NCBI RefSeq assembly: GCF_964213995.1 | Contig: NC_135818.1 | Span: 45,694,001-45,758,000, forward strand | Reading direction: 5' to 3' | Source of the DNA: Mustelus asterias | Taxonomy: Eukaryota | Length of the DNA: 64,000 nucleotides | Shown here: in pieces, positions 11,678 to 57,003 of the stretch | How the letters are laid out: each line of letters opens with the position of its first letter | Position numbering within the stretch: the first letter of the stretch is position 1 | Position numbers and translations under genes: made by a program | The notes under the pieces: generated by a model | Database searches by the model: none | Told to the model about the DNA's origin: nothing | Seen by the model: the letters and a program-made list of their open reading frames with translations, nothing else

Positions 11678-11766
11678 GTGGGAGTGAGAGGCCAGCTGGG
11701 CACGGCCTCTGCACCGTGACAGCCTGCAGTCAGCACTTTTTAAAATGTCTTAGAGTGAATCAAATT

Positions 11767-12081: not shown

Positions 12082-12139
12082 TCGATAATATCACTAGACC
12101 ATCCTGCCCTGCTCCCATTCCAAAATTATGTAGATATGG

Positions 12140-13268: not shown

Positions 13269-13775
13269 GTACGTAGAGAAGCCAAATATATTTCTGATTT
13301 GATCAGTATTTCCTCCTCACAATCTGATTGCAAATTAGTTTTGCCCCTCATTTTCTCAGAGGCTGGAATTGTAGCCATGTGTCTTTTTCATTGAGACTGG
13401 ATTCCTCCTGCCTCAAAACTGAGAATGAGTTCCTGAAAACATTTTTATTTAATTATAGTTTTCAAACCTAATTGACAGTCAGGAATTGTGCTTTTAATGA
13501 AAATTTAGGCAAAAATCCAACATGCTGTTCTGTGTTCAACCTCCCCAGACCATGCACTTGTGGGAACTCAACATAAAGATCTGACAACTTTACACACCTT
13601 TTGTACCCAGGAACAATGCAGGAACTTAAACTGTTGCAGATCGGGTTTGGAATTGGCATAACTTGCCAAGCAGGCCTATGGAGCTTGATCCATTATTTTA
13701 TGACTAAAATATTTTCCTGAATATCCCATAAAGCATTAAGAATGATTACTTGTACATTCTGGAGTTAGTAATATT

Positions 13776-14122
13776 TCATAGAATCATAGAAACCCTACAG
13801 TACAGAACGAGGCCATTCGGCCCATCGAGTCTGCACCGACCACAATCCCACCCAGGCCTGACCCCCATATCCCTACATATTTACCCACTAATCCCTCTAA
13901 CCTCTGCATCTCAGGACACTAAGGGCAATTTTTAGCGTGGCCAATCAACCTAACCCGCACATGTTTGGACTGTGGGAGGAAACCGGAGCACCCGGAGGAA
14001 ACCCACGCAGACACGAGGAGAATGTGCAAACTCCACACAGACAGCGACCAAAGCCGGGAATCGAACCTCGGTCCCTGGAGCTTTGCGGCAGCAATGCTAA
14101 CCACTGTGCTACCGTGCCGCCC
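13776..14122 (-). mobile_element. HE1-type V-SINE
   Basis: Full-length copy with the same head, body and tail. Confidence 0.9.
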
Positions 14123-15153
14123 TGATATTTGCATCAGGGTTGAATTTTTCAGTTTCCTAAGTTACTAACCAGATATAAAAACAATGTTCACTTTAAATTT
14201 TCTTCAAGTACATCAATGCTAGTGCAGCAGTTCGGAACTTTATTCCCCCAGACTAGCCCCCCTTGTGCCTTCCACCTGGTCTCCAAAACCTAACCTGAGC
14301 TCCCAACCTTCCCTCCCCATCCTCGTTATTGTTATTCCAATTCCTCCCTGCCCAAGACATTAAGACTTGACTTAATCCAGCCTCTATGACAGATCTTCCT
14401 GGGGACTCCCTTGAGCAGGAGCCAATACTAGCATCTGCCCCAGTGGAACAACTCAGTTGACATCCAATCAGATTGGATGCTCTCAAGGGTGGGATTTCCT
14501 CTCCCTGAGGGGCAGAAGTCCCACACTCACCTCATTATCACTGTAAGACAGCCCATGGGACTGACTTTTCTACCAGGGGTGGGGTGTATATCTTTGGCCG
14601 GTCAGTTCTGATGGGAATGATCTCTCCCTTCCTTTGGAGTCGAGTTTTTCCATCTCAGGCTCCAGGGACGTGTGGAGAATTCTTAAAAGATCGATTACCT
14701 ACCTTCTGTGGTTTTCTTCATTGCTAAAAATAATACAGGGGACATATATGCTTTCATTTACTTTTGGTCCAATGAGCCAGTGTGTGCATAAGAATTTTAT
14801 TCTGGGCAACTGAGCAGATTGGTGTCACTCAATGTCAGCTCAAACCTATTCCACGAGGAGACATTACCCACAAAATGGTTTGTCCAGAATTCACTCTCAC
14901 TCAATTTTGGCCTCTGAAGAGTATGTAATTTTAAAGAAACCTACCATCTGGTTGATTTTTTTTATTGTTTAATTCTAATTTAACTACTTTCATACGACTA
15001 GTTCACCTAGTACACATTTTGAGATTCTGAAGAGCACTTAAATATAACAACTATTAAAACAGACTTGGTGTTGGTATCTACCAAAAAAACAACTATTGCT
15101 ATTGATGCAATAAATTAATATCAAACTCTGCTCAATAATTTTTGTTTTTACAG

Positions 15154-15276
15154 GTTAAACTCCACCACCCTGACAGTGAAGACCTGGCCTTCCTCTATGG
15201 CACTATATTAACTGATGGCAAAGATGTGTTTTCTGAAGAGCCAACAGCAAATATCTGTGTTTTTGCAGATGCTCAG
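15154..15276 (+). CDS. L3HYPDH: L3HYPDH exon 3
   Basis: VKLHHPDSEDLAFLYGTILTDGKDVFSEEPTANICVFADAQ. Acceptor tttttacag, donor gtgggt; 123 nt. Confidence 0.95.
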
Positions 15277-15946
15277 GTGGGTAAAGTAACTATGATTAAC
15301 AAACCTTGTTACAATGAACTTACTACACACATTTGAGCAGGCCTTGAAGGGTAAACACTGTGCGATCTTTAGTGATTTAATCACAGCCGATTTATGAAGT
15401 GGCACAAAATAATCTACTTAATTTCTCAGCTGAGATTCCCAGTCAGACTTGTTTTAGGAAGTATCAATTAATAATGGAAGTTTATTTATCAAAGTGTATA
15501 TCGCATTCTTTGTGCAATAAATAAGAAAGAAAATATCACCTCAGATGTATTCAAAGTATTCCTGTTTAAAATACAAAATAAATTAATGAACTCAGTTGAA
15601 ATTTGATGATTTTGAAAATATCTTGTTTTCCGGCTGTTGGTCGGTTTCTTCCTCATTAAGGGCAGCTCCACAAAATCCACAATAGGAGAAATTTCCCTGT
15701 GTACTGGAGCAGCTCTACTGCAAACACTAGGGGTTAAAACAAAGCTGACTGTCACCTGAACAGTAATCAGAACTTGCACTTTTGCAAGCTCTTTATCAAC
15801 ATTTTAATACCCAAGGTCAAAATACTCGATCCATACCTATTATTTATTATGCAGTTAAGGAAAACATTTGAAAATATAAAGATCAAATATAATTCATGAA
15901 TAAAAAAACATTTTGAGCATTTTTTTGTTTAACTTATCCTGAATAG

Positions 15947-16084
15947 GTTGACAGAAGTCCCTGTGGCTCGGGTGTGACAGCTCGTATTGCACTGCAGTAT
16001 CACAAAGGATTAATTCTGCTGAATCAGACCAGGACATTTCAGAGTGGTCCAACAAGCTCGCTCTTCACAGCAAAAGCTGTAGAG
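15947..16084 (+). CDS. L3HYPDH: L3HYPDH exon 4 (absent from the ORF track)
   Basis: Manual translation: VDRSPCGSGVTARIALQYHKGLILLNQTRTFQSGPTSSLFTAKAVE. Acceptor gaatag, donor gtgatt; 138 nt, phase 0 at both ends. Confidence 0.95.
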
Positions 16085-19013
16085 GTGATTGACATATTAT
16101 AAGTATTGTTGCTTTTTGAAACCTAATACAACAGCACATTTTAACCCAAACCTCAACAGTTAGCAGCATTTATATTTTGTATTAAATGTCAAGAGCTAGT
16201 AGTCCCTATCTACGATATCTAGAAATTATAGTGTCACTATCCAGTATTCACCCAAAATTGTAGGAACTAACTTAAGCTTCAGAAATTAACGTTTATTAGA
16301 AATTTCATTTTTTAATTGCTCATGTAAGATTTTCTTCCAATTAATCTTCTTAATTGTTGCAATTATTTTAAACAAGACTTAGTCTATGATTCCAAATCTT
16401 TCAAATAAATAGAGGAAGTTTTTTTTCTTCATTATGAAGTTAAAGAAAAATCTTCCACAAAACTTGTTAAGACGGTAAATACAATGCAGTTTGCAGCAAT
16501 GCAATACTCAATCTTGTGCAGCTTCAACCAAGCACTCTGCAATGTGGATAAAGGTTTTCCATTGCGTTTCCTGGAAACTTTTTCAATGTTATTTTTTGTA
16601 ATGTCACTAGGGAGCCAATTCAACAATCCCCTCAGTTGTGTTTTAACTAACCATTTAAACGTGACCAGCGTCTAGTCATCAGTACACTGAGTTCCACTTT
16701 CACCAAGTTGAGAATTACATAGAGCGAGCAGAAGTTGGGTTTGTACACACCACTCAATCTGTCTTAAATCAAAAAATTGGAATATACTGTCCAGAATTGC
16801 ATCTGGACCAAGACTACAATTCTTTTTCTTGTTAATTAAGTGTGTCCCACTCTTAAGTTTCTGTCTGCAAGATTAGGATAAGGTAGCAAAGTCATTTGTA
16901 CAAAAGTTAAATTGAGAAATTGGACAAAATACCTATATGAAATGTAGAATGCTGCAAATGCTCAACAACTAATTCCTAAAAGTGTCTCTTAAATACTAGC
17001 AAATGGCAATTTTGACAGAATAAACATACTGGCAGTGCAAGAGGCAATTAGGAAACACCCAAGTGACAATGTGTGAATCAGACGACTTGCACAATCCCAC
17101 CACCTTGGGAAAGCCAGCTGCTGATTAGCATTTTTAAATATTTCCATTTTTTTATCAAAGCAGCTATCACCTACTTTTATAGAACAGAGTTAGTGATCCG
17201 CGAGAGACAAATGTGATGTGAGAAAATACATTTGGGGTGTGGAATGCACTGCCTGGAAGTGTGGTGGAGGCAGGTTCAATCGAAGATTGTCTCAAATAAC
17301 AAAATGAGGAAGGCACTAAGTCATGATGCTCGTTTGGGGAACCAATGCAAACACGATGGACCAAATGGTTTCCTTCTGCTCCATAATAAGTCTGTGATAC
17401 ACAGTTGGCAAATAATAAATATGCCAAAAACAAAAGACAAGCTACTATCCAGTTACTCAAGTTCAATGATAACAATAAACCTCCGCTTGCCTTCAAACTA
17501 TCTTGAAATGCTGCTTACTCAAACCTTTTGTTAGTTAAGGTTTTGTGCACGACTAGTTGTTCAGGTTAAGACTACAAAAGTACACGAGGCGAGTTCGTCC
17601 ATGTGCTTTGGCTTCTTAATATAGCGTTTCATTGAATAAATCTTATCATATTCCTTTGGTTCTTCAGTGCTTGTTTGTGCTTGGACTTGATATTGGAAGA
17701 AAAATATTATGATAGTGATAATGACTCACCTAACCAATACATTCACAATGCAATTGGAAAGAGGCAAAATTACAAATCTTTTAGGTATGCACAAATTTAG
17801 AATAGCTACAGTTAAATGTGCAAATGTTAATAATTCACCAATGCATTAAATAAATGTTTTTTGTCTTTCTATAAAGACTCTAAATGTTTACCCCTGGGGT
17901 AATAAGTAGAATGGGTAAGATGGGTATAGAGGGATATGGGCTAAATGCGGGCAATTCGGATTAGCTTAGGGGTTTTAAAAAAGAAAGGGCGGCATGGACA
18001 AGTTGGGCCAAAGGGCTTGTTTCCCTGCTGTAAACCTCTACGACTCTAATAACTAGTCTAGATTTTGTATTATTAACAGTAAAGCTAGTAGCATGCACTG
18101 TTATAGAGTAAAGAGACAGTAACTTTCAGAGTGCGAACATGTATAGTTAAATGTGGAATCCAGAAGCTGTGGTCTGCATTACTCAGAAGATGTACAGGCT
18201 ACGCTGTAACAGAACCTCAAATATAGCTTCAGCGTTGACATACATTTAATGGCATGAAGTTGGGGGGGTACTTACCACCAATTACTCACTAAACATACCA
18301 GAAAAGGTTAGGGTGTTGCAATTAGGACTAAGTAATTTTTTACATGGTGTGATAAGTGATAATTACTGCCAAGCAACCTTCCTGGCCCTGAAAATTTTAC
18401 TTGTACGGTGTCTCAGTCCTTCAGAACTTAGCCAGTATTGGAGATTTTGTAAAACAGTTTATTTTAGATTTTTTCTTGTGTCTCCCCTGCCTTGTCTGCC
18501 AATTTCATCGTTCTTTCTCAATCTTTATTTTACTTTCTGCACACAATATAAACCTAATTTATACTTTTTGCTTTAGGCTGCATGTCTCAGAAAGGATTCT
18601 TCAGTCTGCTCGATTGAAGAGCTTTCCTGTTCTTTTCCCTTTTCACGTTCCCAATAGAAAGCACTTAATTAAATGTTGGGCCAAATCCTCTGGTCTCTGG
18701 ATTGTGGAGACCACACGACTGAAGATATGCGTGGGACTCTGTGCAAGTTATGATGCGCGGAGCTACATGGAAACTACTCAGGAAGTTTCAACTTCCAATG
18801 GCAATTCTGACCGTCCGCAGGTAACTACACAACTGACCCCACCCCCCCCCCCCCCCCCCCCACCTCCAAAACCTCCCGATCTCCCGCACTGGCTTCCCTC
18901 AACTAGCCCCACCCACCCCTCTCCTCCCCATTGAACGCCCAACCCACCTACACCCCTCGAGCTAACCTGACTGCCATCTCAATTACCCACCTCACTCACC
19001 TATCCATCTCACT

Positions 19014-19300
19014 CGGGGGGAGGCGGTGGTCAAGTGATTTTATTACTAGACTATCCACCTGCTAATGTTCTGGGGACCCAGGTTCAAATTCCGCCATGGC
19101 AGATAGTGGAATTTGAATTCCATAAAAAAATCTGGAAATAAGAATCTATTGATGACCATGAAACCATTGTCAATTGTTGGAAAAACCATCTGGTTCACTA
19201 ATGTCCTTTAGAGAAGGAAATCTGCCATCCTTACCTGGTCTGGGCTACATGTGAATCCAGAGGCACAGCAATGTGGTTGACTCTCAACTGACCTCTGGAA
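19014..19300 (+). mobile_element. tRNA-derived SINE, second family
   Basis: ggaggcggtgg...ggttcaaattcc head and core ctggttcactaatgtccttta...aggaaatctgcc; shared with the 23906 and 54772 copies. Confidence 0.75.
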
Positions 19301-19739
19301 GTCGTGAAAAATTTTCAATCAAAGCAGCAATCCAGCAATCATTGCTGATGCTCAGAAGATCTGGCCTTTGTATTGTGGGCAGCCGTCAGCACAGTGACTG
19401 GGCGAACATGGCTGGCAAATCCCACTCTAAAGGTATCAAGAGGTATGGGGAGAGTGTGGGAGTATGGTGTTGAGATAGAGGATCAGCCATGATCATATTG
19501 AATGAAGGAGCAGGCTGAAAGGGCCAAATGTCCTACTGTTGCTATGTTCTATGTTTCTACACCTATTATAGTTGGGACCACCCTATTCACATGAGCACAG
19601 ATGTGTATCAGAAATCAAGTCTTTGAGAGGGAGGTCAGATGGTCTCATTGTTTTGAAGTATTGTGTTTTGTTGTGGACTTACTATTAGGAATAGCTCCCC
19701 ATTTATGGTCAGAGATAAAGGAAAGAAAAAGAGGAATGT

Positions 19740-20140
19740 AGAATACAAAGAATAGTACAGCACAAGAACAGGCCCTTCAAGCCTGCGCCGATCACGTTTA
19801 CCTACCTAAATCAACTGCGCTTAACCCTCTATTCCCCGTGTGTTCATATGCCTATCAAGATAAGTATTAAATGTGGCTAACGTAACTGCCTCAACCACCT
19901 CACTTGGCAGTGCATTTCAGGCCCCCACCACCCTGTGTGTAAAAAAAAAACTTCCCCCACACATTTCCATTGAACCTTTCCCCCTTATCTTGAACTTGTG
20001 CTCCCTTGTAATTGTCATTTCTGCCCTGGGACAAAGCTTCCAACTGTTCACCCTATCCATACCTCTCATAATTTTATAAACTTCCTTCAGGTCACCCCTC
20101 AGCCTCCATCTTTCCAGGGAGAACAATCCCAGTTTATTTA
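19740..20140 (-). mobile_element. CR1 3' end
   Basis: FSLERWRLRGDLKEVYKIMRGMDRV...FFTHRVVGA. Confidence 0.8.
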
Positions 20141-20691
20141 CAGTTTAGCATAAGTCAAGATTCCTGGTTGAGGGGTTGATTAGGTCCAGATGGAGATCAG
20201 AACAACAGCTGATCAGAAATGCTAAATAAGCCTGATAATAAGGATAATGTGTTAATGTTCCTTTAAGAAAAGTGACCAAATCGTAAGGTGGCGAGAATTG
20301 TTACAAATGTTTCCTGTTGTTGTTCTAATAACAAATGCAAAATAAACAAATTGTGGACATGCATTCTGCTCACTTCTTTTACTGGTGAAATAGTGTGCAT
20401 TCCAAAAGATTGGAGAAGCACACTTATATGCACATGTGAAAGAGACAATATCCAGTCCAGATTACAGCAATAACGTGGGTTATGAGTAGAATGGATGCAG
20501 AATCTCCCTGTTTCAGTGACTTGTACTGCAGAACTTCAGAATAGTTGAAGAATTGTAACCAGAGCATTAGGTTTAGAAAGATAGCTGTTTGAATTAATAT
20601 GGGATGAGTAACTATCAAAAATACATCTGTAAAAGCTGGTCAAAACCAAAGCATTTTTGATATTAGAATTAGAGTCCAGGTGATATTAAAG

Positions 20692-21026
20692 TTTTTTTTT
20701 ATTACTTTTCCAATTCAATCAAATCAAATCCAATTCAGAGTCTCAACAAGTCTCAGATCCAGGCTGACAAGACAGGGCGAGCGACCAAACCACCCTGTCC
20801 TGGGCCTGATCTACATGAGCCAAGCTGATTGGAGAAGGGGGAGGTTCCTCCTCCAAGACTTGAGCTCATTTGCATCTTAGCCAAAAGGCCGAGATGCCAC
20901 TTTTAAAAATTGCTTCATATGAAACATATGAAGCTTCAGTGTAACCTAATGACCTCAACCAAGTGCGGCCGACCATGGGCTGCCAACTATACTACACTTG
21001 ATCTTAGCCAAAAGGACGAGAGGGAT
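20692..21026 (-). mobile_element. U2 snRNA-headed SINE-like retroposon, copy 1 (L3HYPDH intron 4)
   Basis: Minus strand starts ATCCCTCTCGTCCTTTTGGCTAAGATCAAGTGTAGTAT (U2 nt 1-39). Internal exact match to U2 nt 7-27, A-rich tail, and colinear with the copy at 43339-43639. Confidence 0.8.
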
Positions 21027-21141
21027 AGCACAAACCTTGGTGACTCATGCCCTGATATATTTTTATGGTAATAACTATTATTATCATACCATGAGCAATA
21101 TTGTGAGAAGATTGCTAAAAATGTATTTTTCCCCCCCCCAG

Positions 21142-21267
21142 GAAACACAATGTGGCGATTTCAAAGCTGTTATAGTGGAAGTGTCAGGGCAAGCACATTA
21201 CACTGGAACAGCAAGATTTTACGTGGAAGATGATGATGACCTGAAAGACGGGTTTCTTCTCAAATAA
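21142..21267 (+). CDS. L3HYPDH: L3HYPDH exon 5 (terminal coding exon)
   Basis: ETQCGDFKAVIVEVSGQAHYTGTARFYVEDDDDLKDGFLLK-stop after a strong polypyrimidine acceptor. Spliced CDS totals 1041 nt = 346 aa. Confidence 0.95.
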   Translation, partial: ETQCGDFKAVIVEVSGQAHYTGTARFYVEDDDDLKDGFLLK

Positions 21268-23905: not shown

Positions 23906-24270
23906 GAGGAGGCAATGACCTAGTGGTATTATCACTAGACTATTAATCCAGAAACTCAGCTAATGTTCTGGGGACCTGGGTTTGAATCTCGCCATGGCAG
24001 AAGGTGGAATTTGAATTCAATTTTTAAAAATCTGGAATTAATCTACAGAAGACCATAAAATCATTGTTGATTGTTGGAAAAACCCATCTGGTTCATTAAT
24101 GTCCTTTCGGGAAGGAAATCTGCTGTCCTTAACTAATCTGGCCTACATGTGACTCCAGAACCACGGCAATGTGGTTGCCTCTCAACTGCCGTCTGAACAA
24201 GGACAACGAGGGATGGGCAATAAATGCTGGTCAGCCAGCAACGTCCATGTTCCACAAATGAATAAAAGGA
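23906..24270 (+). mobile_element. tRNA-derived SINE, second family, with CR1-type tail
   Basis: Tail gggatgggcaataaatgctgg is shared with LINE 3' ends at 6560-6760 and 31340-31765. Confidence 0.75.
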
Positions 24271-27958: not shown

Positions 27959-29266
27959 ATGGATCTTTCCACCGAGATTCCACTGTTATACAACCTCACG
28001 GAAACCAACAGCTCAGACACGCCAGTCACCTCGCCCACTGTGATCAGCAACCAAACTGGGGCAGCTCAGCAGGACCAAGCCAGTGGGCAGCCTCACACAA
28101 ACTCCCTGCTCTATGGCATGGCCATGGCTTCCAAAGCTCTCATCCTCCTGCTGATTTTCCTGTTGTCCTGTCTGGGCAATTCGGCCGTCATTGTGATGAT
28201 CATCAAGCACCGGCAGCTGAGGACAGTGACCAATGCCTTCATCATGTCCCTGTCTCTGTCCGACCTCCTCACTGCCCTGCTGTGTGTGCCCTTCTCCTTC
28301 ATCATGCTCTTCACCCAGGAGGGGATTTGGATCTTTGGCGACCAGTTTTGCATCGCCAATGGCTTCTTCAACTCTTGCTTTGGGATTATCTCCACCCTCA
28401 CCATGACCCTCATCTCTTTTGATCGTTACTATGCAATCGTCAGGCAGCCCCAGGAGAAGATTGGCAGGCGTAGGGCCACCCAGCTGTTGGTTGCTGTCTG
28501 GCTGACTGCAGTCCTGTTCTCTTTCCCCTGGTATCTCATCTCACAAGTCCAGGGTCCACTGATAGTCCACAAGAAGGGGTTCTACCACTGCATGTACATC
28601 TTCCACTCGGGCAGCTCCCGCATGGGCACAAGTTACAGCATCACCCTGATTGTTATCTGCTACCTTCTGCCTTTCTCTTTGATGTGCTTCTGCCACTACA
28701 ACATCTGTAAGACAGTGAGGCTGTCAGAGATTCGGGTGCGTCCAGTCACCACCTACGCCCATCTACTGCGCTTCTACAGTGAGATGAGGACGGCTACAAC
28801 TGTGCTGATCATGATCGTCTTCATCATCTGCTGCTGGGGCCCCTATTGCATAATGGGCATCATCACAGCCACTGGCAACTTCCACTTCACCCCCATCATG
28901 GACACTGTCGCCATCTGGCTGGCTTGGGCCAACGGAGCCCTCAATCCGCTCATCTACGCCACTAGAAACCCGAACATCTCCATGCTCTTGGGCAGGAATA
29001 GGGAAGATGGCTACAGGACTAGAAACATAGCAGCCTACTTGTCCAACCAGAGCCATGAGGCCAGGAGCAGGGTGGACAGGTTAAGGGATCGATATGTCAG
29101 CCGGCAGGGTTCCGGCAGCAGGATGTCTTCCTCCAGCCCGGCAAATGGAGATGTTGCAATGTGGGCCTGTAAAAACCCAGCCGTGCTCTTCTGCAGAGAT
29201 GGACAACCCGACACAGTGTCTGAGCTCATTGTTCCCAAATCACAGACTGCGGACACGAGTCTTTAA
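27959..29266 (+). CDS. GPR135: G protein-coupled receptor 135 (class A orphan GPCR), 435 aa, single coding exon
   Basis: 7TM protein with GN, LSLSD, DRY, CWGP and NPLIY motifs. Characteristic segments [34 protein letters not shown] and [10 protein letters not shown]; synteny with L3HYPDH/JKAMP. First in-frame ATG is at 27959 (the ORF track starts at a GTG). Confidence 0.96.
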
Positions 29267-37165: not shown

Positions 37166-37994
37166 TGGAGGAAGCACCATCAACCCACAATCAGCAATTT
37201 GCGAGGTATCCTCTTCCCCCTCCCCACGTGCTCCCCACCTCCCAACAAGCAGGCATGAGGTTTATTCAACCCGACTGCCCTCTCAGGCCCCCTTTCCTCC
37301 AGAGAGCCCCCAAACATTCCCCTTCCATCCCAGAACCCCCACTCAGCCCCCTTCACCCGCAGACTCCCCATTCACCCTCCCTTAAGGCCACGCGCCTCGA
37401 CAGTGCCAGAAGTGCACTGCCCCCAGGCACCTTGGGCCCTGGGGGAGGGAGGGGGGGTTAAGGAGGTAGGTCCATAGTGGACATTTGCCCCTCTGCGGTT
37501 TCCAGGCTGCAAGGACAGGTCCTTCAGGGGTCCTGGATTTGGTGGGCTCGGGCTGGGGACAAGGGATTGACCTCCCCATTCTCCATCGGGATGGGCGTGT
37601 CATGGCTCGACTGCCCCTTCTAGTCCTGGCAGACCTGAAGATCATCCCTGCCATGGTGATTTCTGCATTCCTGTGTCAGCTGTGCAAATTCTGAAGGGGT
37701 CAGGTCACTTTAACTTCCATGTGCCTGGTCACTTGGCAGGATTTTAAACAATTGCAGCACTCCATTCTGCAGCAGTGATTTTCCTTCTGTCCTGTCAGAA
37801 GCAGCAGGTGAGAGCAGACCCCTTTGAAGTCCTCTGACAAAGAGGAGATGTCAATATCACCTGGGAGTGGGTTCAGTTTGCCCAGCTGTGCACTCAGCCC
37901 CAATGTATGCACACAGCTTTGATTAGAAGTTACCGTGGCTTCCCAGCAAGCAGAAATCGTTGAAACTCTCTCCATTGCACTTAAAGCCTTTAAT

Positions 37995-38317
37995 CTGTGG
38001 CACAGTGGTTAGCACTGCTGCCTCACAGCACCAGGGACCGGGGTTCAATTCCAGTCTCGGATTACTGTCTGTGTGGAGTTTGCACATTCTCCCTGTGTCT
38101 GCGTGGGTTTCCTCTGGGTGCTCCAGTTTCCTCCCACAGTCCAAAGATGTGCGGATTAGGTTGATTGGCCATGCTAAATTGACCCTAGTGTCAGAGATTA
38201 GCAGTGTAAATATGTGGGGTTACAGGAATAGGGCCTGGGTGGGATTGTGGTTGGTACAGACTCGATGGGCCAAATGGCCTCCTTCTGCACTGTAGGGATT
38301 CTATGATCTATGATTCT
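37995..38317 (+). mobile_element. HE1-type V-SINE
   Basis: Same consensus as the other copies. Confidence 0.9.
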
Positions 38318-40160
38318 AAGTTCAGTGTGCAATGCCTCAAACCCCCCACCGAGGGTAAAAGATTCAGTTGTCAGCTCAATGGAATTCTATCATCCTCCAG
38401 CCACCTGTGTTTATTTTTATTTCCCTTCAAGGTCGACTACAAGTACCCATTGATCTTGACCCCAATGTAGACAGAGTCTAATCCTGATTGACAGCCTGTG
38501 GTTTCACTTCATCTTTTGCAAACCACTTCAAGTTATTCAACATTCCCTGTTTTGCAGTTGACAATGATACATTATATTCGTAATGAAGCTTATTTTGTAA
38601 ATATAATGTTATTCTACAATCTTATAAAACCTAAATACATTTTCCTGGCTTCAAGACATTGGCCCTGATTTCGGGGCGGGCGAAGCTTACAGGACGGCAT
38701 TCTCCATTGACCTCGGGTGTGATCTTACAAGCCTGGGGCGGGCGGGCTGATAAAATTCCCATTGTTACCATCCCAATTCTTTAAACTCTCGATAGGACAT
38801 CTCCAGTCACATTGCATTGCAGGCCGAAATAATTTTTAGGATTAGTGATTGCAACATCAAACTCCAGCGCAACAGCCTTTGGATCTTAGTTTGGAATTGT
38901 TCTAGGAACAAGGTTGTGGGTCCCTTGGTTTACCATTCTTCATGGTGCTTTTTAAAATCTGTATTGGATTGTGCACAGTCTGGACACTGGGATAGCATTT
39001 TGATGGAGCCAAAGGTTTTAAAATTTGTTTGGTTTGGTTAACTTGTCAAGAACAACATTGCTGATTGCTGGCAAAGCATCTGACTTCTGGGTATTGGCAG
39101 CTGTGAACCCAAGGAGAAATTACATCATACTGCTTCTCACCCTCTGCATGCAGCAATTCCCTTTGTTCTCCATTTATACTAGACACAAAATTGTCACCAG
39201 GGATTCCATTGTATGAATCAGACTCTGAACCACTCTGTTCAGTTTGGATCCCCTCATCTCCATTTTCGTCTGTGTCTGAATGCTTTTTTCATGTTTTTGA
39301 AAAAGGTTTCAACCAACCAAACATCAGCGTTGTCCTTCATAAAGATTGAATTTGCCTCATCCTGTTTAAATTCAAGATCATTCTTAACTGAGTTCTTCTC
39401 GCCCATTTAACTCTTTGGTTTCCTTTCCCAGGAGATGCAAACAGTTCATTTTCTGTTGAGTAAAATCCTCTTGCTGCTTTAAGAACTTTGTGAAGGTTAC
39501 GGCGATGTTCAGCTAAGAAATCTGTTCATCCTGTGCATGAATTCTTTTGATTCCTTTTTGCTCTTCGCTGTCTCACTATTGTTGAGCTTTGTTTAAATTC
39601 AGTTCTGGCAAGAGCTACTGCACTTTTGTTTGGAAGTTTTAATTTATTTTCATGAACACATTCTTCCTCACAGCTCTATAGTATCAGCACCGGACTTAGC
39701 TTGGCTACTCTTTCAAAGCACATTTTCCATCTTTTTCATCATGAGCTTTGAGTCCTATTGCTAACTGCTTCACCTCACCTTGCTCATCATTTTTCAACAT
39801 TTTCAATTCAGTTGGCTTTCCATTGTCTTCAACTACTCTTAGATTTTTCTTTTCAGCCTGATGCTCCAATGTCCTTTTACAATTAGCAGACTAAATTTCC
39901 AACTCTTTGGGCACATCTTTGGTTGAAACTTTAACTCTCACAGCAGGTTTATAGAAAGTCATGGAATTTTTTAAGTCATCTGGATTTTCCTGCACAATTT
40001 TGGTTTTAACAGCCTCAACGAGCATCCCTGAAAACACTGGAGATGGTAATACCTTATCCCCTGCTAAGTCATTTCCCAACAAGAAGTCAACACTTCCGAT
40101 GAGTAAAGTAGGAACGACACCCACAACAACAGGACTTCTAACTAAGCCACATTAACACAT

Positions 40161-40655
40161 CCATTGACTCTGTCTACACTTCAAACTGCCTCAGAAAAGC
40201 AGCCAGCATAATTAAGGACCCCACGCACCCCGGATGTACTCTCTTCCACCTTCTTCCGTTGGGAAAAATGTCTGAGGTCACGTACCAACTGACTCAAGAA
40301 CAGGATAAGTGCAAATTACTGCAGATTCTGGAATCTGAAACCAAAAGAGAAAATGCTGGAAAATCACAGCAGATCTGGCAGCATCTGTAAGGAGAGAAAA
40401 GAGCTGACATTTCGAGTCCAAATGACCCTTTGTCAAAGCTGACTCAAGAACAGCTTTTTCCCTGCTGCCATCAGACTTTTGAATGGACCTACCTCACACT
40501 AAGTTGATCTTTCTCTACACCCTAGCTATGACTGTAACACTGCATTCTTCACTCTCTCCTTTCCTTCTCTATGTTTTGGCTGTATAGCGCGCAAGAAACA
40601 ATACTTTTCACTGTATACTGATAAATGTGACAGTAATAAATCAAATCAAATCAAA
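40161..40655 (+). mobile_element. Rex1/Babar-like LINE 3' end nested in the Gypsy element
   Basis: Degenerate KAASIIKDPTHPG..LF.LLP.G..RT..LKNSFFPAAIRLLN-like reading and an AATAAA(TCAAA)n tail. Confidence 0.6.
40304..40438 (-). mobile_element. Penelope-type terminal-repeat fragment with variant hammerhead, 15-bp TSD
   Basis: TSD CTGACTCAAGAACAG at 40289-40303 and 40439-40453. Minus strand reads AGCT-TTGACAA-A-GGGTC-atttg-GACTC-GAAA-TG-TC-AGCT. Confidence 0.7.
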
Positions 40656-42539: not shown

Positions 42540-43765
42540 ATCATTCTCTGTGTTAGGTTTGACTCCAACCAACTATTGGAGAGTTTTCCCCAATTCCCAC
42601 TGACTGCAGTTGTGCTGGGACTTTTGATTTTGCACTCAGTCAAATGCTGTCTTGATATCAAGAGCAGTCACTCCCACCTATTCAGTTCAGGTCTTCTGTC
42701 CATGTTTGTAGCAAGGTTGTAATGAGGTCAGGAGCCTAGTGGAACCTAAACTGAGCAATGAGTAGGTTGTTGAGTAAGTGCTGTTCGATAGCCCTGTCAA
42801 TGGCATTGTCCATCGCTTTGCTGATGATCAAGGGTAGACTGATGGGGCTAATTGTCTGAGTTGGATTCGTCCTGCTTTTTGTGGTTAGGGCATACTTGGG
42901 CAACTTCTGTGTTTTGGGGTAGATGCTGCTGTTGCAGCTACACTGGAACAGTTTGGATAGGGACGTAGCCAGCTCTGGAGCACACACCTTCAATACTATT
43001 GCCGGAACCTTTGCAGAGTCCACAGCTTTGCAGTATCCAGTGCCTTCAGCCATTTCTTGATATCACTTGGAGTGAATCAAATTAGCTGAAGACTGGTATC
43101 TGTGACACTGGGGACGACTGGAGGAGGCTGAGATAGATCATCCATTTGGCACTTCTGGCTGAAGATGATTGCAAATGCATCAGCTTTGTCTTTTGCACTG
43201 ATGGGCTGGGTACTGCCATCATTGAGGATGGGAGTATTTGTGGAGCCTCCTCTTCTTATCAGTTGTTTAGTGGCCCACCAACATGCACGTGGCAGGACTG
43301 CAGAGCTTAGATCTGATTTATTGGTTATGGGATCACTTTTTTTTTGTTACATCCAATCAAAGTCCAATTCAAAGTCTCAACCAGTGAGATATTAGAGATC
43401 CAAGCTGACAAGACAGGCTGCCCTCTTCCTGTCTTGGGCTTGATCTACATGATCCAAGCTGATAGGAGCAGGCATTGCACCCCCTCCAGTGCTTGATCTC
43501 ATTTGCATCTTAGCCAAAAGGCCTAGATGCCATTTTTAAAAATTGCTTCAAATGAATCCTCAGTGAAACCTCGTTGACTCCTATCAAGTGCAGCACAGCA
43601 AAACTACATTTGATTTTAGCCAAAAGGCCGAGGAGCAATTATGGGATCACTTAACTCTGTCTATCACTTACTGCTTTGCTGTGCGATATACAAGTAGTCC
43701 TGTTATCGCTTCACCAAGTTGACACCTCATTTTAAGGTATGCCTGGTGCTGCTCCTGGCACACTC
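42540..43765 (-). mobile_element. CR1-like LINE fragment hosting the U2-headed element
   Basis: KAVDSAKVPAIVLKVCAPELATSLSKLFQCS...PISLPLIISK...QFRF. Confidence 0.7.
43339..43639 (-). mobile_element. U2 snRNA-headed SINE-like retroposon, copy 2, with 13-bp TSD
   Basis: Head matches U2 nt 1-37 at 33/37 positions; poly-A tail. TSD TATGGGATCACTT at 43326-43338 and 43640-43652. Inserted into a CR1-like fragment. Confidence 0.85.
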
Positions 43766-43890: not shown

Positions 43891-44220
43891 TATAGAATCC
43901 ATACAGTGCAGAAGGAGGCCATTCGGCCCATCGAGTCTACACCGACAACAATCCCACTCAGGCCATATCTCTGTAATCCCACGTATTTACCCTGCTAATC
44001 CCCCTAACCTACACATCTTGGGAAACTAAGGGGCTAATTAGCATGGCCAATCCACCTAACCCGCACATCTTTGGACTGTGGAAGGAAACAGGAGCACGCA
44101 GAGGAAACCCACGCAGACACGAGGAGAATGTGCACACTCCACACAGACAGTGACCCAAGCCGGGAATCGACCCCAGGTCCCTGACGCTGTGAGGCAGCAG
44201 TACTAACCACTGTGCCACCG
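43891..44220 (-). mobile_element. HE1-type V-SINE
   Basis: Same consensus as the other copies. Confidence 0.9.
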
Positions 44221-44373
44221 ACAGAAACCGACAGAATTTTAGAAATGGGGATTACATTCCTGGTGGAAGGCTTTTGGAAAACATTCTATTTAAAATGGAT
44301 CATGCCTCCCTCCTCTACTTTGACGAGGATCAGAAGTTGCACTGTGGAGATGTCAGGCTGAACAGACACATTA

Positions 44374-44715
44374 TCATAGAATCATAGAAACCCTACAGTG
44401 CAGAAGGAAGCCATTCGGCCCATCGAGTCTGCACCGACCACAATCCCACCCAGGCCCTACCCCCACATATTTTACCCACTAATCCCTCTAACCTACACAT
44501 CCCAGGACACTAAGGGGCAATTTTTTAACCTGGCTAATCAACCTAACCCGCACATCTTTGGACTGTGGGAGGAAACCGGAGCACCCGGAGGAAACCCACG
44601 CAGACACGAGGAGAATGTGCAAACTCCACACAGACAGTGACCCGAGCCGGGAATCGAACCCGGGACCCTGGAGCTGTGAAGCAGCAGTGCTAACCACTGT
44701 GCTACCGTGCCGCCC
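44374..44715 (-). mobile_element. HE1-type V-SINE
   Basis: Very similar to the copy at 13776-14122. Confidence 0.9.
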
Positions 44716-45262: not shown

Positions 45263-47695
45263 TAGAACATAGAACATAGAACAGTACAGCACAGAACAGG
45301 CCCTTCGGCCCACGATGTTGTGCTGAGCTTTGTCTGAAACCCAGATCAAGCTATTTCCTCCCTATCATCCCGAAGTATTCCATGTGCCTATCCAATAGCT
45401 TCTTAAATGTTCCTAAAGTTTCTGACTCCACTATCCCTGCAGGCAGTCCATTCCACACCCCAACCACTCTCTGAGTAAAGAACCTACCTCGGACATCCTT
45501 CCTATATCTCCCACCATGAACCCTATAGTTATGCCCCCTAGTTACCGCTCCATTCACCCGAGGAAATAGTCTTTGAACGTTCACTCTATCTATCCCCCTC
45601 ATCATCTTATAAACCTCTATCAAGTCTCCTCTCAACCTCCTCCGCTCCAAAGAGAAAAGCCCAAGTTCCCTCAACCTTTCCTCATAAGACCTACCCTCCA
45701 AACCAGGCAGCATCCTGGTAAATCTCCTCTGCACTCTTTCCAGTGTCTCCACATCCTTCTTGTAGTGAGGTGACCAGAACTGCACACAATATTCCAAATG
45801 TGGTCTCACCAAGGTCCTGTACAGTTGCAGCATAACCCTACGGCTCTTAAACTCAAACCCCCTGTTAATGAACGCCAACACACTATAGGCCTTCTTCACG
45901 GCTCTATCCACTTGAGTGGCAACCTTCAGAGATCTATGGATATGAACCCCAAGATCTCTCTGTTCCTCCACATTCTTCAGAACCCTACCTTTGACCCTGT
46001 AATCCACATTTAAATTTGTCCTACCAAAATGAATCACCTCGCATTTGTCTCCATTTGCCATTTTTCAGCCCAGCTCTGCATCCTATCTATATCTCTTTGC
46101 AGCCTACAACAGCCCTCCACCTCATCCACTACTCCACCAATCTTGGTGTCATCAGCAAATTTACTGATCCACCCTTCAGCCCCCTCCTCCAAGTCATTTA
46201 TAAAAATGACAAATAGCAGAGGACCAAACACTGATCCCAGTGGCACTCCGCTGGTAACCGGTTTCCAGTCCGAAAATTTTCCATCCACCACCACCCTCTG
46301 TCTTCTGTTAGATAGCCGGTTACCTATCCAATCGACCAAACTTCCCTCTATCCCACACATCCTTACTTTCTTCATAAGCTGACCGTGGGGGACTTTATCA
46401 AACGCCTTACTAAAATCCATGTCCATGACATCAACTGCACTACCTTCATCTACACACTTAGTTACCTCCTCAAAAAATTCTATCAAATTTGTGAGGCAAG
46501 ACTTGCCCTTCACAAATCCGTGCTGACTATCCCGGATTAAGCTGCATCTTTCTAAATGGTCGTAAATCCTATCCCTGAGGACCTTTTCCATCAACTTACC
46601 GACCACCGAAGTAAGACTAACCGGCCTATAATTACCAGGGTCATTTCTATTCCCTTTCTTAAACAGAGGAACCACATTCGCCACTCTCCAGTCCTCTGGC
46701 ACCACCCCCGTGGACAGTGAGGACGCAAAGATCAATGCCAAAGGCTCTGCAATCTCATCCCTTGTCTCCCAAAGAATCCTAGGATATATTTCATCAGGCC
46801 CAGGGGACTTATCAACTTTCAGTTTATTCAAAATTGCTAGTACATCTTCCCTCCGAACATCTACTTCCTCCAGCCTATCAGCCTGTGACACCATCTCTTC
46901 CTCAAAAACATGGCCCCTCTCCTTGGTGAACACCGAAGAAAAGTATTCATTCATCACCTCTCCTATCTCTTCTGACTCCATGCACAAATTCCCACTACCG
47001 TCCTTGACCGGCCCCAGCCTCACCCTGGTCATTCTTTTATTCCTCACATAAGAGTAAAAAGCCTTGGGGTTTTCCTTGATCCGACCCGCCAAGGACTTCT
47101 CATGCCCCCTCCTAGCTCTCCTAAGCCCCTTTTTCAGCTCATTTCTTGCTAACTTGTAACCCTCCATCGAGCCAACTGAACCTTGTTTTCTCAACCTAAC
47201 ATACGCTTCCTTCTTCCTCTTGACAAGACATTCCACCTCTTTTGTGAACCATGGTTCCCTCACTCGGCCATTTCCTCTCTGCCTGGCAGGGACATACCTA
47301 TCAAGGACACGCAGTATTTGTTCCTTGAAAAAGTTCCACTTATCATTAGTGCCTTTGCCTGACAATTTTTGTTCCCATCCTATGCTTCCTAATTCCCGCC
47401 TGATTGCATCATAATTACCTCTCCCCAATTGTAAACTATGCCCTGCCGTATGGCCCTCTCCCTCTCCTTTGCAATAACAAAAGACACCGAATTGTGGTCA
47501 CTATCTCCAAAGTGCTCTCCCACAACCAAATCCAACACTTGGCCCGGCTCATTTCCCATTACCAAATCCAATGTGGCCCCACCTCTTGTCGGCTTATCCA
47601 CATATTGTGTCAGGAATCCCTCCTGCACACACTGCACAAAAACTGCCCCATCCGAACTATTCGACCTATAAAGGTTCCAATCAATATTTGGAAGT
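45263..47695 (-). mobile_element. Relatively young 5'-truncated CR1 (HER1-like) LINE, ORF2 split by frameshifts
   Basis: ORFs 47389-47811, 46034-47428 and 45351-46061 contain LDLV/SDH endonuclease motifs, [32 protein letters not shown] and RPHLEYCVQFW, plus a (TTCTATG)n tail. Confidence 0.93.
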
Positions 47696-48365
47696 GGGTG
47701 CAAATCATGCCCTTGACATAATCTCACTTCGTGCCAGCAACACCTCACCTGAAGACTCTGCGAGTTTGTTGGACTCAGTACCCTGAGAAAGCATGAGGCC
47801 AGACACTGCATATAGCTATAATTACAGACACAAAATGACCACCTGGAACCTTACCGTAGCTGTGTCAACATTGGATTTTCCTTTGACAACCGCCCTCTAC
47901 CTGGAGGTGACTACAAGGTGAATGTGTACAGAGGAGAATTCTCAGGGAGGTCCCAATGAGTTGGACAACAGTCCTGGTACACTACTGATGGTAAATCCAC
48001 CAATGAAAAAAATCCAGCCTTTTGCCTCTGTATTTGGCCATCAACTCAGGCTATTTCAGCAACTTACACAACTAGATCTCCTCTAAACTCATCGCCACAT
48101 TCTGTCAACTTTGATCATGATACTAATCTGGAAGAAAATATGGTACGAATTAGATGTACTTGAAAAATAAGCTCGTTTCTATTCCCCTCTCTCCCAGTCT
48201 CAAAGTCTGCTATCTACAATCTACTGAAATGTACAATATATCTCCCTTCCTATAATCCTACACTCATCTTTCACGAACCCAATTAGTCCCTGCTGTTTTT
48301 GATTACCATCCATTATCTGTCCCATCTGCTGCTTTACTGATAACTGAGTAGTGAACCTGTCAAAG

Positions 48366-52452: not shown

Positions 52453-54771
52453 CAATGAGTTTGTAGATATGGTTCTTTATTTTACAAATTCTCCATTAGT
52501 CTCCTCTTACTCAGAAACATCAAACATCAATCACCATCATCCCCCCCAGACTTTGAGAATTATCACGAGTCTACAGGATAACAAGTATAGCCAGGATTTC
52601 CAGAGCTCAAGTTACTTTTAACCTGGGCATTTTTACTCCATCCCTCTATTAGACTTTTAAGTTCAAATCTATTTTCAATACGCACTTGGCTACTTCTGCC
52701 ACCATGTCTCAATGAACGAGAATCAACTCAAATCAAGTACACTGCTGAAGTAAGAACCATCTGCTGTCCATTTATTACAAATCTCCTCCCTAAACCATGT
52801 TAATTCATAAAATTCAAATGGACTTAAGGATACCATGGAAACCCATGTTGTATCTGTATTAAATCCAGGGCAGGAAGTTCAGAGTTTGGAAGCTTTTCTT
52901 TTGATGACCAAATGATAGGTACATTTCAAACAAATTTAATCTGTCAATAAATGATAAACAGTGTCTGTAAGGTTGCTGGATTGCATATAAATGACAACCA
53001 AGGACTAACGACTTAAAATGTTTCACTTTGCGTTCTTCAGCAACCCTTAGAGTGTGGTTATGCAAGGGAGAACTCCCAGGCTCCTGACATGTCACATCAT
53101 GTGTACAGGTCATCTCAACATGCACATGAACACCCAGACTACAGCTTCCCCATTTTCGTTGGGATGTCCCGTATCTGCACGCACGTGACAATGTTAGATG
53201 GTGGTAACAGGACATAATGCCCACAGCACAGACTTGGACCACCAAACCTGGTGCAAAACCAACACAACACTTCCAGCCCTTTTTCTTTTATAAAACACAG
53301 CCCATATGTACACCAAGTCAGTACATAGTCCTTGAGCTTGGAGCTTGTTCTGCTCCGCCATCCCAAGTGTGTAATTGTAACAGTTGGTTCTGCTGGGGAT
53401 GCACCCAGATTGTTGTCCACTGGGCAGGTGGCATCGGGTGTGCCTAGGCTGTGTACAATGGCTGCAGAGTTTGTTGTGTTGGTGTCTGGAGGGGCGTCCT
53501 TCACCACTGCTGCAGGCGGTGCAGATTGTGAACTCGACATGTTAAGCCCTGTAGTAGGGTGATGGTGCTGGTTCGGGACCTGTAACAAATGCGCCAGTTC
53601 TTGACATAGAAACCACCATCTCAGGCAAGCACATAATGGTTTGGTTAGGGGACATGGCTCTGGACCACTGGCATTTTGTTACAGTTGCATATGGTTTGCA
53701 CTCTGACTGGCCCTATTCTAAAGTGCAGAGTCTGCGGGCGTTGCAATCATTATATCTTTTCCCTCTTCGTCACTGTTTCATGAGGGCTCCACCCACATTT
53801 GTTCCCACTTTGGGTTACAGAAGTGCCTTGGCGACAGGGATCATGGTTCTGGTATGTCTGGAAAACATTCTATCTGCTGACAGGGGCAGGGCCTGTCTAG
53901 AAATCAGTGTAGACATCAGTGTTGACACAGACATTTTTCAAGGAAGTGCTTTACTGAGTATATTGCCTGCTCTGCCAAACCATAACTGTGGTTAGAGGGG
54001 GCTGCATGTAATGTGTTCAAAGTCTCAAATGTGTGCAAAGTCCTGGAACCCCCTGGAGGCAAACTGCCAGGTGTTGTCTGTCAGCATCCTCTGGGGAATG
54101 CCATGTGTAGCGAAGTGTCTCTTCAGCTTTCCACTCACTGTGATGTTCTTCATGTCGAGCAGATGGTCGACTTCATACCAGCCTGAGCATGAAATCGACA
54201 AGAGCCAGATGTTGTTTCCCATTCCATTTGAATGGATCTGCCACTGAGCAACCATGGAAGGTCTGGGACCCCCTGGAGGTGCAGTGGTTCATTGGTTTGA
54301 TGAGGCTTGATCATGTTGCATGGCACACATCTGGACACTTTCATCTCTATGTCTGCATATGTTGAAGGCTGGTACATGGTTTTTTTTGCCCTACACTTTG
54401 TTGCTTCCATCCCTGGGTGTCCTTGGTGGAGTTGCTAGGTGCAGAACCTCTGCAGAGAAGTAGGGATGACAAACCACTGGCCGCACAGTATCAGTCCGTC
54501 TCGCACGGTTAACTCCTCTCGCACGGTGCAAAGGTCATGGGGAAGCTCCTTTGACATCACGGGCCATCCTGACATAATGATTCCTGGAGCTGCCTGCATG
54601 CGTGAACTGAGTTCCTCAATTCTGCAGGATGACAATACTTGAATCACAACAATATCAATGTCCTCATTCTTGATCGGTGGTGGGTAGGTAAGCCTGAAGA
54701 GGGCAACTGCAAGGTACATCTCTTTAGTGCACTTGTAAATGACAGAGAGGTTGTAGTGTTGTAGCTTTTTT

Positions 54772-55095
54772 AATTCATTCATGGAATATGAGCATTGCTG
54801 GCTGGGCTAGCATTTGTTGCTCAATCTGAATTGTCCTTGGACTGTTTGGCCATTTAAGAGTCAACCACATTGCTGGTGATCTGGAGTCACACATTGGCCA
54901 GACCAGGTAAGGACGGCAGATTTCCTTCCCTCAAAGACATTAGTGAACCAGATGGGATCTCACGATAATAGTTTCATGGTCGTCATTAGACTTTTTAATT
55001 ACAAATGTTTATTGAATTTAAATTTCACCCGGAGCATTAAACTGGGTTTCTGGATTACGAGCCCAGTGAGAATACCACTGCGTCACCGCCTCCCA
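54772..55095 (-). mobile_element. tRNA-derived SINE, second family (inside the Gypsy element)
   Basis: Reverse complement of the 23906 copy. Confidence 0.75.
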
Positions 55096-56072
55096 CTTGA
55101 GCATCATCTGCTGCAGGCACGGGGATGCCGTGTGAAGAGGGTTTTTTTCAGGCAGGCCAGAGATGAAAGCAATAAGTTTCTGACATGCAAAGGGGTTGCT
55201 GCTCAATCTGTGCAGAATGAGTGCTCAGTGCCATTGATGGTCTTTGATGCGAAGGTGACTGGTCTGAAATTTTGGATACAGATTGCACCAAGTCCGTGCT
55301 AGGAGGCATCTGCTGATAGGAGTATTTGTAGCACTGGAGGAGCTGAAAGCAGGTGTTTGATCTTGTTGAACACAGCAGTGTGGTGGTCCTGGCAACACCA
55401 TTCTACATCCGAGTGGGAGAACTGACAGAGGGCCCAGTCACCTCTCAGTAGCAGTGAATGAACTTTGACAAAGTTGTCTTACCAAGGAAGCGCTGCAGGG
55501 CATGCTTGCCCACAGAAACCCACTGTGTGGCCTCAAATATTTGCTGTATTTGTTGTCTTGTCTGGACCTGGTTTCATACCATCAGCTGTGACTAAGTGAC
55601 TTTCATAGGGAGCCTGGGTGACTCTGAATCTGCATGTAGAAGGTTGAGCATCAATCGTATAGTCCTGATTCTGTTGAGGACCAAACGCAAACATGCATCA
55701 TGTTCTTTCATTGTACGCCCCAGACCAGGATATCATCAACGATGACTCCACAGGCTGTCATGCAAAGAGTTGTACCATAGACCATTGGAAGACCTCGCTG
55801 CCAGTGGAAATCCCAGAGGGTATAAGGAGGAAGTGGTATCTATCCATTGAAGACATGAGCGTGGTGAGCTCCGAAGATTCTTCATCCAGTTGAATTTGCC
55901 AAAATCTGCACTTCACATCCAGGATGTTTAAGATCTTAGCATTAGGCATGTCAGCTATGACCTGTTCAACTGCCTTCGTAAGGTGATGGGTTCTCAAAAG
56001 TACCTCGTTTAGGTGAACCAAGTCGATGCAGACTCAGACTGTGCAGTCTTTTTTTTAACCACAGCTTCCATC

Positions 56073-56353
56073 TCAGTGGCACAGTGGTTAGCACTGCTGC
56101 CTCACAGTGCCAGGGACCCGGGTTCGATTCCCGGCTTGGGTCACTGTCTGTGCGGAGTCTGCCTGTGTCTGCATGTGTTTCCTATGGGTGCTCCGGTTTC
56201 CCCCAACAGTCCAAAAGACGTGCTGGTTAGATGCATTGGCCATGCTAAATTCTCCCTCAGTGTACCCGAACAGGCGCCGGAGTGTGGCAATTAGGGGATT
56301 TTCACAGTAACTTTACTATGGTGTTAATATAAGCCTACTTGTGACACTAATAA
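56073..56353 (+). mobile_element. V-SINE with alternative 3' tail (inside the Gypsy element)
   Basis: Same tail as the 10421 and 62940 copies. Confidence 0.8.
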
Positions 56354-56787
56354 TTTTTTTTAAATTACAGAAACCCACTGTTGGCCTCACATATAGGGCT
56401 ATGACCCCCAGTCTTGTAATTCAATTCAGTTCATTGACTACCTTCTGTTTCATAGCGAGGGTTACTCTTCTTGGAGCATGGACAGTGCACGTTACTGAAT
56501 CATCCAGCCTCATGTGATATATGATGGGCAGCTTTCCAATAATATCACAGTCGAACAGGTCTTTGCATTCTAACATCTTGGTGGCTTGGTGCTCCAGAGT
56601 GTGTATATCCAGTCTAAGCTGGATTAGACCCAGTGCAATGCCATCCTGTGGATCCAACAGCAGTTTTACATCTTGGTCGCCTATGTGGAATTGGAACTTG
56701 CCCTGCGTGCTGTGCTGGGTGATTACGCCTTCCATGCGTATGTTTTGTCTACCATATGTAACAATATTTACCCTGGTGGTGGAATCT

Positions 56788-57003
56788 GGTGGTGAAATCA
56801 TTCGCATTCTAATCAGTATTCTGTAACTTGATTTTGTGTCTCTGTATGCCCTGTTTGAGAGCAGATATCCACTCCATCTGACGAAGGAGCAGCGCTCCGA
56901 AAGCTAATGGCATTTGCTACCAAATAAACCTGTTGGACTTTAACCTGGTGTTGTTAAAACTCTTACTGTGTTTACCCCAGTCCAGTGCCGGCATCTCCAC
57001 ATC
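56788..57003 (+). mobile_element. Short Penelope-type non-autonomous element containing a hammerhead ribozyme
   Basis: 10-bp TSD GGTGGAATCT at 56778-56787 and 57004-57013. The 3' end recurs inverted at 44806-44863. Confidence 0.75.
56874..56910 (+). ncRNA. Type I minimal hammerhead ribozyme
   Basis: CCAT-CTGACGA-A-GGAGC-agc-GCTCC-GAAA-GC-TA-ATGG: complete core, 5-bp stem II, 4-bp stem I and a palindromic minimal stem III. Confidence 0.75.

Follow-up and report, generated by a model that had tools for sequence, protein, structure and literature searches.

A probable family of U2-headed, SINEU-type retroposons in the shark Mustelus asterias

Two dispersed copies of a short element beginning with the 5' part of U2 snRNA are present in the window, that is, the whole 64-kb stretch of DNA analyzed here, and they are probably members of a SINEU-type family of short, non-autonomous shark retroposons. 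The proposed unit would consist of two U2 modules, the first comprising U2 nt 1 to approximately 39 with a fold-back arm, the second U2 nt ~4-33 with two duplicated hairpins, and would be closed by a polyadenylation signal and an A tail. As we rate it, the novelty lies in the host lineage, new among vertebrates for elements of this type, and in a fold-back arm and a hairpin chain.

Two copies and the insertion of copy A

Both minus-strand copies reported in an earlier note on this DNA, which was based on the letters of the sequence, are present at their positions (A and B, Table 1). They are 71.5% identical over 312 columns (BLASTN inside the 64-kb window, E 3e-43). An nhmmer profile built from A and B identifies no third copy in the window (next match E 0.13), and neither BLASTN nor the profile finds a headless copy of the body across the 64 kb. 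No stray copies were detected in bacterial and archaeal genomes and plasmids, a negative that is uninformative, since a eukaryotic repeat is expected to be absent from them. The element is non-coding, as the two open frames of at least 85 aa overlapping copy B have no Pfam match within it.

The 5' end coincides with U2 nt 1 in both copies, and the earlier claim that U2 sequence extends from there to nt 37-39 is borne out by Rfam and by alignment by eye with human U2 (the 5' sequence printed in S1 of PMC4640811). The head of copy A has 33 matches over U2 nt 1-37, and that of copy B 36 matches over nt 1-39 with one gap. The 3' end of the head is not sharp, since one further gap could carry the match to approximately nt 44. 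The Rfam U2 model (RF00004) gives 33.9 bits in A and 33.5 bits in B, both below the gathering score of 46; at E up to 10, Rfam reports nothing else of note for either copy. The body has some resemblance to U4 or U1, but an origin from these was rejected, as neither family is returned at this threshold.

At the 3' end, the A-rich tail described previously is present in both copies as an A run, though a short one (7-9 nt): each copy has nine A, the final two in copy A belonging to the target site duplication (TSD). Copy A carries AACAAA in the position equivalent to AATAAA of copy B. A PSE-like stretch in the tail of copy A was dropped, being absent from copy B, and a loose descriptor of HDV-like ribozymes has no match in the element.

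The two TSD copies flanking A are identical in 13 of 13 positions (14 bp with the first A of the element included), while exact repeats of at least 11 bp were found in none of 1500 random site pairs. Copy A splits a decayed LINE ORF2 fragment of the endonuclease-RT type, for which phmmer finds 18 relatives. Three of these (P0004, P0010 and P0012) match both flanks of A and contain the TSD codons once; endonuclease and RT domains were found in P0014, one of the six relatives scanned. No empty-site copy of the host LINE is present within the window. The TSD of A is a genuine insertion scar splitting the LINE ORF2, and the clean 13-bp duplication claimed earlier is thus confirmed by the random controls and by the single codons in the LINE relatives. 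For copy B, no TSD above chance was found, the best candidate being 7 nt with two mismatches.

The target of A reads TT/AAGT. Its TSD (43652-43640) has a 6-nt core in common with the preferred target duplication of SINEU-3 as given in PMC4494074; this likeness is probably due to chance.

Table 1. Positions of the two copies, their parts and the insertion site of copy A within the window
Feature	Position	Strand	Basis or remark
Copy A, whole element, 301 nt	43339..43639	-	BLASTN, copy-versus-copy alignment, nhmmer
Copy A, U2 head (U2 nt 1-37, possibly to 39-44)	43601..43639	-	Rfam and comparison by eye
Copy A, fold-back arm pairing with U2 head	43569..43594	-	fold and duplex energy
Copy A, Sm-site-like AATTTTTA, without 3' G	43537..43544	-	T5 run as well
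Copy A, second U2 segment (U2 nt ~4-33), remodelled as extended hairpin H3	43498..43530	-	
Copy A, octamer ATGCAAAT inside H3	43501..43508	-	
Copy A, hairpin H4	43451..43502	-	
Copy A, hairpin H5, tandem duplicate of H4	43397..43450	-	0/1000 shuffles
Copy A, 3' end, GTAAC and A run	43339..43350	-	degenerate AATAAA
TSD of A, 5' copy	43640..43652	-	
TSD of A, 3' copy	43326..43338	-	
Decayed LINE ORF2 fragment, split by copy A	42690..43760	-	endonuclease-RT type
Copy B, whole element, 335 nt, without TSD	20692..21026	-	antisense in last intron of L3HYPDH-like gene
Copy B, U2 head (U2 nt 1-39, one-base gap)	20989..21026	-	Rfam and comparison by eye
Copy B, fold-back arm pairing with U2 head	20945..20966	-	fold and duplex energy
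Copy B, Sm-site-like AATTTTTA	20904..20911	-	
Copy B, second U2 segment (H3)	20865..20897	-	
Copy B, octamer ATGCAAAT inside H3	20868..20875	-	
Copy B, hairpin H4	20817..20869	-	
Copy B, hairpin H5, duplicate of H4	20756..20816	-	4/1000 shuffles
Copy B, 3' end, AATAAA directly continuous with A tail	20692..20703	-	

Anatomy, folding and divergence of the body

The body of ~270-300 bp is shared by the two copies, as previously stated, but it is not wholly non-U2, since it contains a second U2 segment of ~30 nt, and the label "non-U2 body" has to be corrected accordingly. The first reading of the sequence mentions neither this segment, nor the arm that folds back onto the head, nor the duplication of the hairpins.

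The arm situated behind the head forms a predicted duplex with it of -17.4 kcal/mol in copy A (as stable in 0/1000 shuffles) and of -21.3 kcal/mol in copy B (as stable in 2/1000). Plain reverse-complement identity between arm and head is weak (21/1000 and 389/1000 shuffles), so that the case for the arm lies in its duplex energy, G-U pairs included, and not in identity. Stem-loop I, the native fold of the head, is scarcely formed in the full predicted RNA, with pairing probability 0.09 in A and 0.00 in B; since, moreover, the arm pairs with the head in both copies, the head appears to be an integral part of the element. In the predicted ensembles, pairing involves U2 nt 20-22 and 26-30 in both copies; A has nt 33-37 paired too, while nt 35-38 are unpaired in B.

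Further downstream, a block of 16 nt around the Sm-site-like run AATTTTTA is identical in A and B, and in neither copy does the run have the final G of an Sm site, an A standing in its place. The score of the second U2 segment is reached by 0/1000 shuffles in either copy, and its core 17-mer has four matches in the window against 0.18 expected. One inserted base and one substitution relative to U2 lengthen the stem of H3 and create the octamer ATGCAAAT, which occurs six times in the whole window and is perfect and conserved in both copies. The same octamer is given in PMC3544641 as the consensus of the distal element (DSE) of snRNA genes.

The segment is followed by hairpin H4 and its duplicate H5. 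Two other candidate relationships were rejected: long-range pairing of the fold-back arm with H4 is at the level of chance (150/1000 and 574/1000 shuffles), and homology of the first hairpin to H4/H5 falls short of significance (118 to 1278 of 2000 shuffles).

Compared with dinucleotide shuffles, folding yields z of -3.85 for A and -7.29 for B, values reached by none of 100 shuffles in each case. The two separate folds, with 96 and 113 column pairs, have 60 of these in common. The tips of the hairpins vary between A and B in both length and sequence, while the basal stems are almost unchanged: columns paired in both folds differ in 13 of 155 cases, against 45 of 126 elsewhere. This contrast is reached in none of the neutral, substitution-only simulations (150 from each of two ancestors), and it holds away from indels. 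For columns paired in either fold, the enrichment is matched by 2 and 3 of 150 simulations and disappears after columns near gaps are dropped. Of the 53 core pairs of B, eight are disrupted in A, which is not fewer than under neutrality (P 0.13-0.82). The basal stems contain one double change and several wobble changes; the covariation test (255/500 shuffles) was applied to two sequences, which carry no information in this respect. Clustering of substitutions has P <0.05 for only two of six statistics. Altogether, the evidence for selection on structure is mixed.

Transitions make up 28 of the 58 differences between A and B, compared to 334 of 495 (67.5%) among copies of the tRNA-type SINE (p 0.003), and the excess of transversions sits at the hairpin tips (picked by eye). 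Such a low share of transitions, with transversions at the tips, speaks for the replacement of whole blocks in source elements and against decay from one master, and suggests that A and B come from two source variants that had their hairpin tips exchanged in this way. We read this replacement as the result either of selection on the basal stems or of template-switch mutation at hairpins, and the data fit both. The heads of A and B differ in 7 of 37 positions, and their H3 segments in 1 of 28.

Origin, mobilization and rival explanations

SINEU elements, according to PMC4494074 (Kojima 2015), are defined by U1/U2 heads and poly-A tails, and their insertions are accompanied by TSDs, by truncation or by unaltered sites. 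SINEU-1 shows recurrent 5' addition of U2 and partial duplication. The text of that paper reports SINEU in no lineage outside crocodilians, in agreement with what the earlier note had stated, and leaves the mode of transcription open; in the available text of PMC5786205, PMC7245038, PMC4758252 and PMC5381603, SINEU are cited solely via Kojima 2015.

The shark element, set beside SINEU by the description in the text of PMC4494074, shows four characteristics of SINEU: a head from U1/U2, a non-coding A-tailed unit of less than 500 bp, retroposition, and oligo-T without a tRNA head. With SINEU-1 and SINEU-3 it has in common the U2-derived 5' head, the short (<500 bp) non-coding sequence with a poly-A tail, TSDs of ~10-16 bp (here in A) and internal oligo-T, and with SINEU-1 in particular also repeated U2 segments and partial duplications. 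Transcription by Pol II and mobilization of the Tx1 type are presumed for both. It differs from SINEU in its host, a shark instead of crocodilians, in having no U1 part and in that neither copy lies in a Mariner element, as far as is visible. The fold-back arm, the internal octamer and the conserved hairpin chain are unmentioned in the text of PMC4494074. Head and body occur together in both copies, that is, in two copies only.

In the proposed mechanism, Pol II would transcribe a source locus from U2 nt 1, most likely using an upstream snRNA-type promoter kept from an ancestral U2 gene. The RNA would then fold as a chain of hairpins locking, according to predicted folding, the U6-pairing part of both U2 segments; being so locked, it would be compact and unlikely to act as U2, which may be of benefit to it. 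Polyadenylation would be followed by target-primed reverse transcription (TPRT) by an endonuclease-RT of the L1/Tx1 type, so that the copies would be full length and carry an A tail and a TSD of ~13 bp, such a scar being observed for A only. Priming on poly-A and TSDs of ~13 bp are typical of the L1/Tx1 clades. A and B themselves would be promoter-less daughters of two distinct source variants.

Several observations bear on this scheme. T runs of at least 4 nt are found four times in copy A and three times in copy B (T4/T5), and ARAGORN detects no tRNA in either copy; these features fit Pol II and argue against Pol III, as for SINEU. No octamer or PSE-like motif is present within 300 nt upstream of A or B, and neither U2 nt 39 onward nor a 3'-box-like motif within 300 nt downstream, although the shark consensus may differ from the PSE and 3'-box patterns used, and the flanks of A are LINE sequence. 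Due to this absence both copies look promoter-less. No partner LINE sharing the 3' end of the element was found in the window. The Pfam scan, which covered 79 of the 108 open frames of at least 85 aa (the other 29 coincide with copies of the tRNA-type SINE or, in a different frame, with exons already known), gives RT-domain matches at a level that does not resolve the Tx1 and L1 clades.

The earlier description of a U2-headed, A-tailed, non-autonomous retroposon with a shared body stands as regards its SINEU-like character and TPRT, the latter via the TSD of A, while a source in a U2 gene would be conjectural: a flanking check of the kind suggested for such a source (PSE/DSE upstream, U2 nt 39 onward downstream) gave no match within 300 nt of A or B. 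The expectation that 5' ends pile up at U2 nt 1 holds for the two copies in the window. A high genomic copy number had been suggested as well, on a weak basis: two copies per 64 kb correspond to a 95% interval of 4-113 per Mb (0.4-87 per Mb with the triggering copy discounted), and the tRNA-type SINE has 17 copies in the same window against two of the U2-headed element.

Like U2 snRNA (RF00004), the element contains nt 1-37/39 and, in A, a U-rich Sm-like run at a similar distance, but it was rejected as a U2 snRNA gene, as both copies score below 46 bits, the Sm run has no G and the model is unmatched after nt 37-39. The TSD in A is a feature shared with U2 pseudogenes (PMC5322556), of which the tailless ones are described as 3'-truncated RNA running straight into the TSD. 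In contrast to both U2 snRNA and its pseudogenes, the shark copies continue after the U2 piece with ~260-300 nt of additional sequence common to A and B and with an A tail; it is this body and A run that rule out a tailless retropseudogene. The common body (E 3e-43) also supports the previous statement that these are not simple U2 pseudogenes.

One of the rival explanations is the origin proposed in the first reading, namely an internally deleted Keno (Tx1) or Utopia element inside a U2 gene, read from the promoter of that gene. It is a sub-case of the SINEU-type explanation, compatible with it, and in this specific form we regard it as doubtful. The junction of Keno and Utopia insertions lies at U2 nt 38/39, so that U2 downstream of them starts at nt 39 (PMC4640811, PMC6136364); this agrees with the earlier remark that they insert near the end of the head, and the U2 segment of the shark element indeed stops at nt 37-39. 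Moreover, the crocodilian Tx1-Mar groups with Keno, and some families are U2-headed (PMC4494074). Still, the boundary of the head is ambiguous as far as ~nt 44, and, unlike Keno and Utopia, the shark element has no ORF, is not followed by U2 nt 39 onward in either copy and occupies dispersed non-U2 sites, neither of which resembles the Keno/Utopia target. Since these sites are a LINE ORF2 (A) and an intron (B), the enzyme was not U2-specific in mobilizing these two copies. The turtle and crocodilian Utopia 3' ends given in the supplements of PMC4640811 are without an A tail and, by eye, unlike the A-run tail found here.

It is also possible, though unlikely, that the copies are not a selfish SINE but processed pseudogenes of a cellular, shark-specific family of U2-derived snRNA-like genes under selection. 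Both copies start at U2 nt 1 and are full length, and Rfam aligns A colinearly over model positions 1-192, with the Sm-like run of A at element position 96, near its place in U2, and with two hairpins after it, where U2 has stems III and IV. The U-rich block identical in A and B is partly unpaired in the predicted ensembles, and the basal stems are kept. Against this, the Rfam scores are under the gathering cut-off, the Sm-like run lacks its terminal G, the region of stem II is replaced, the signal of selection is mixed, and the arm is predicted to lock the U2 positions listed above (in both copies, and nt 33-37 additionally in A). The AATAAA-type signal of the tail, moreover, is a mark of a polyadenylated transcript rather than of 3'-box processing, and thus does not suit such a gene.

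A further reading, which we also find unlikely, is that of a "defused U2" source, either a shark-specific, structure-constrained U2-derived RNA gene or a SINE master of this kind. Its antisense arm would lock the U6-pairing and branch-recognition strand, allowing the snRNA promoter and capping to be used without poisoning splicing, and the octamer of H3 would serve as a built-in distal enhancer for the next tandem copy; in tandem arrays it would fall ~180-200 nt upstream of the start of that copy.

Finally, independent chimeras, in which an unrelated SINE or LINE 3' fragment took up truncated U2 by template switching at each insertion, are very improbable: U2 chimeras and 3'-truncated U2 retrocopies are documented (PMC4494074, PMC5322556), repeated addition of snRNA is known in SINEU-2 (PMC4494074), the heads differ more than H3, and the anti-U2 arm might anneal to cellular U2 and so favour a jump there, but the head has the same junction in both copies, the 64 kb contain no body without a head, and the body itself includes a fixed second U2 segment.

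The SINEU-type family thus remains the preferred reading. No report of snRNA-headed SINEs in sharks was found in the literature covered, which includes a minority of the subscription papers, and nothing relevant to such elements is contained in the parts covered of PMC9826928 and of the supplements of PMC8455134. The family may already be catalogued in Repbase or Dfam, in which case the value of the present data falls to structural annotation. An elaborate shark family would imply either a second origin of the snRNA-headed design or a much greater age than has been assumed. The element may also reveal how snRNA-headed retroposons get transcribed: as both copies start at U2 nt 1, source loci should show whether an external snRNA promoter drives it. 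The "defused U2", if true, would be a retroposon driven by an snRNA promoter in a lineage other than crocodilians, on which the question of SINEU transcription could be tested directly. The fold-back arm offers a concrete idea of how a U2-headed RNA could spare the spliceosome.

Genomic surroundings

The window contains exons with a Pfam JAMP domain (450-791 and 5948-6208, minus strand) and a gene with a Pro_racemase domain (11143-21264, plus strand), which we take to be JKAMP-like and L3HYPDH-like, respectively. A single-exon ORF of 435 aa at 27959-29263 (plus strand) is GPR135-like, with 94% identity to the Carcharodon and 92% to the Scyliorhinus protein; these best matches point to a galeomorph shark as host. 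This cluster of JKAMP-like, L3HYPDH-like and GPR135-like genes presumably corresponds to the same neighbourhood in mammals.

Copy B lies ~115 nt before the inferred 3' splice site (21140-21141) of the last intron of the L3HYPDH-like gene. Since it is antisense there, the L3HYPDH-like pre-mRNA carries a U2 complement: positions 20990-21002 (plus strand), which lie ~140-150 nt before the inferred 3' splice site, are perfectly complementary over 13 nt to U2 nt 26-38. Judging from its sequence, this stretch could bind U2 snRNA, and antisense intronic copies such as B would generally put a U2-complementary stretch near 3' splice sites.

The 17 copies of the tRNA-type SINE (for example, 37991-38320, 43892-44221 and 44373-44705) presumably belong to a family resembling the shark HE1; in two of them, at 37056 and 56070, ARAGORN calls tRNA-Cys. 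An inverted repeat of 37 bp with a 7-nt loop is located at 7553-7633; it has weak Rfam microRNA matches below the gathering score, is related to 40336-40417 and, via 40305-40404, also to 10789-10889, and is probably a small DNA-transposon-like repeat. A fairly intact LINE ORF2 with an open frame of 487 aa and an RT domain occupies 45354-47850 (minus strand) and is related to a more decayed copy at 1676-2847. Decayed fragments resembling an LTR retroelement, with weak integrase and RT matches, are found at 54028-56903 (minus strand), and a dispersed repeat of ~280 bp is present in three copies (19019-19297, 23908-24267 and 54769-55029).
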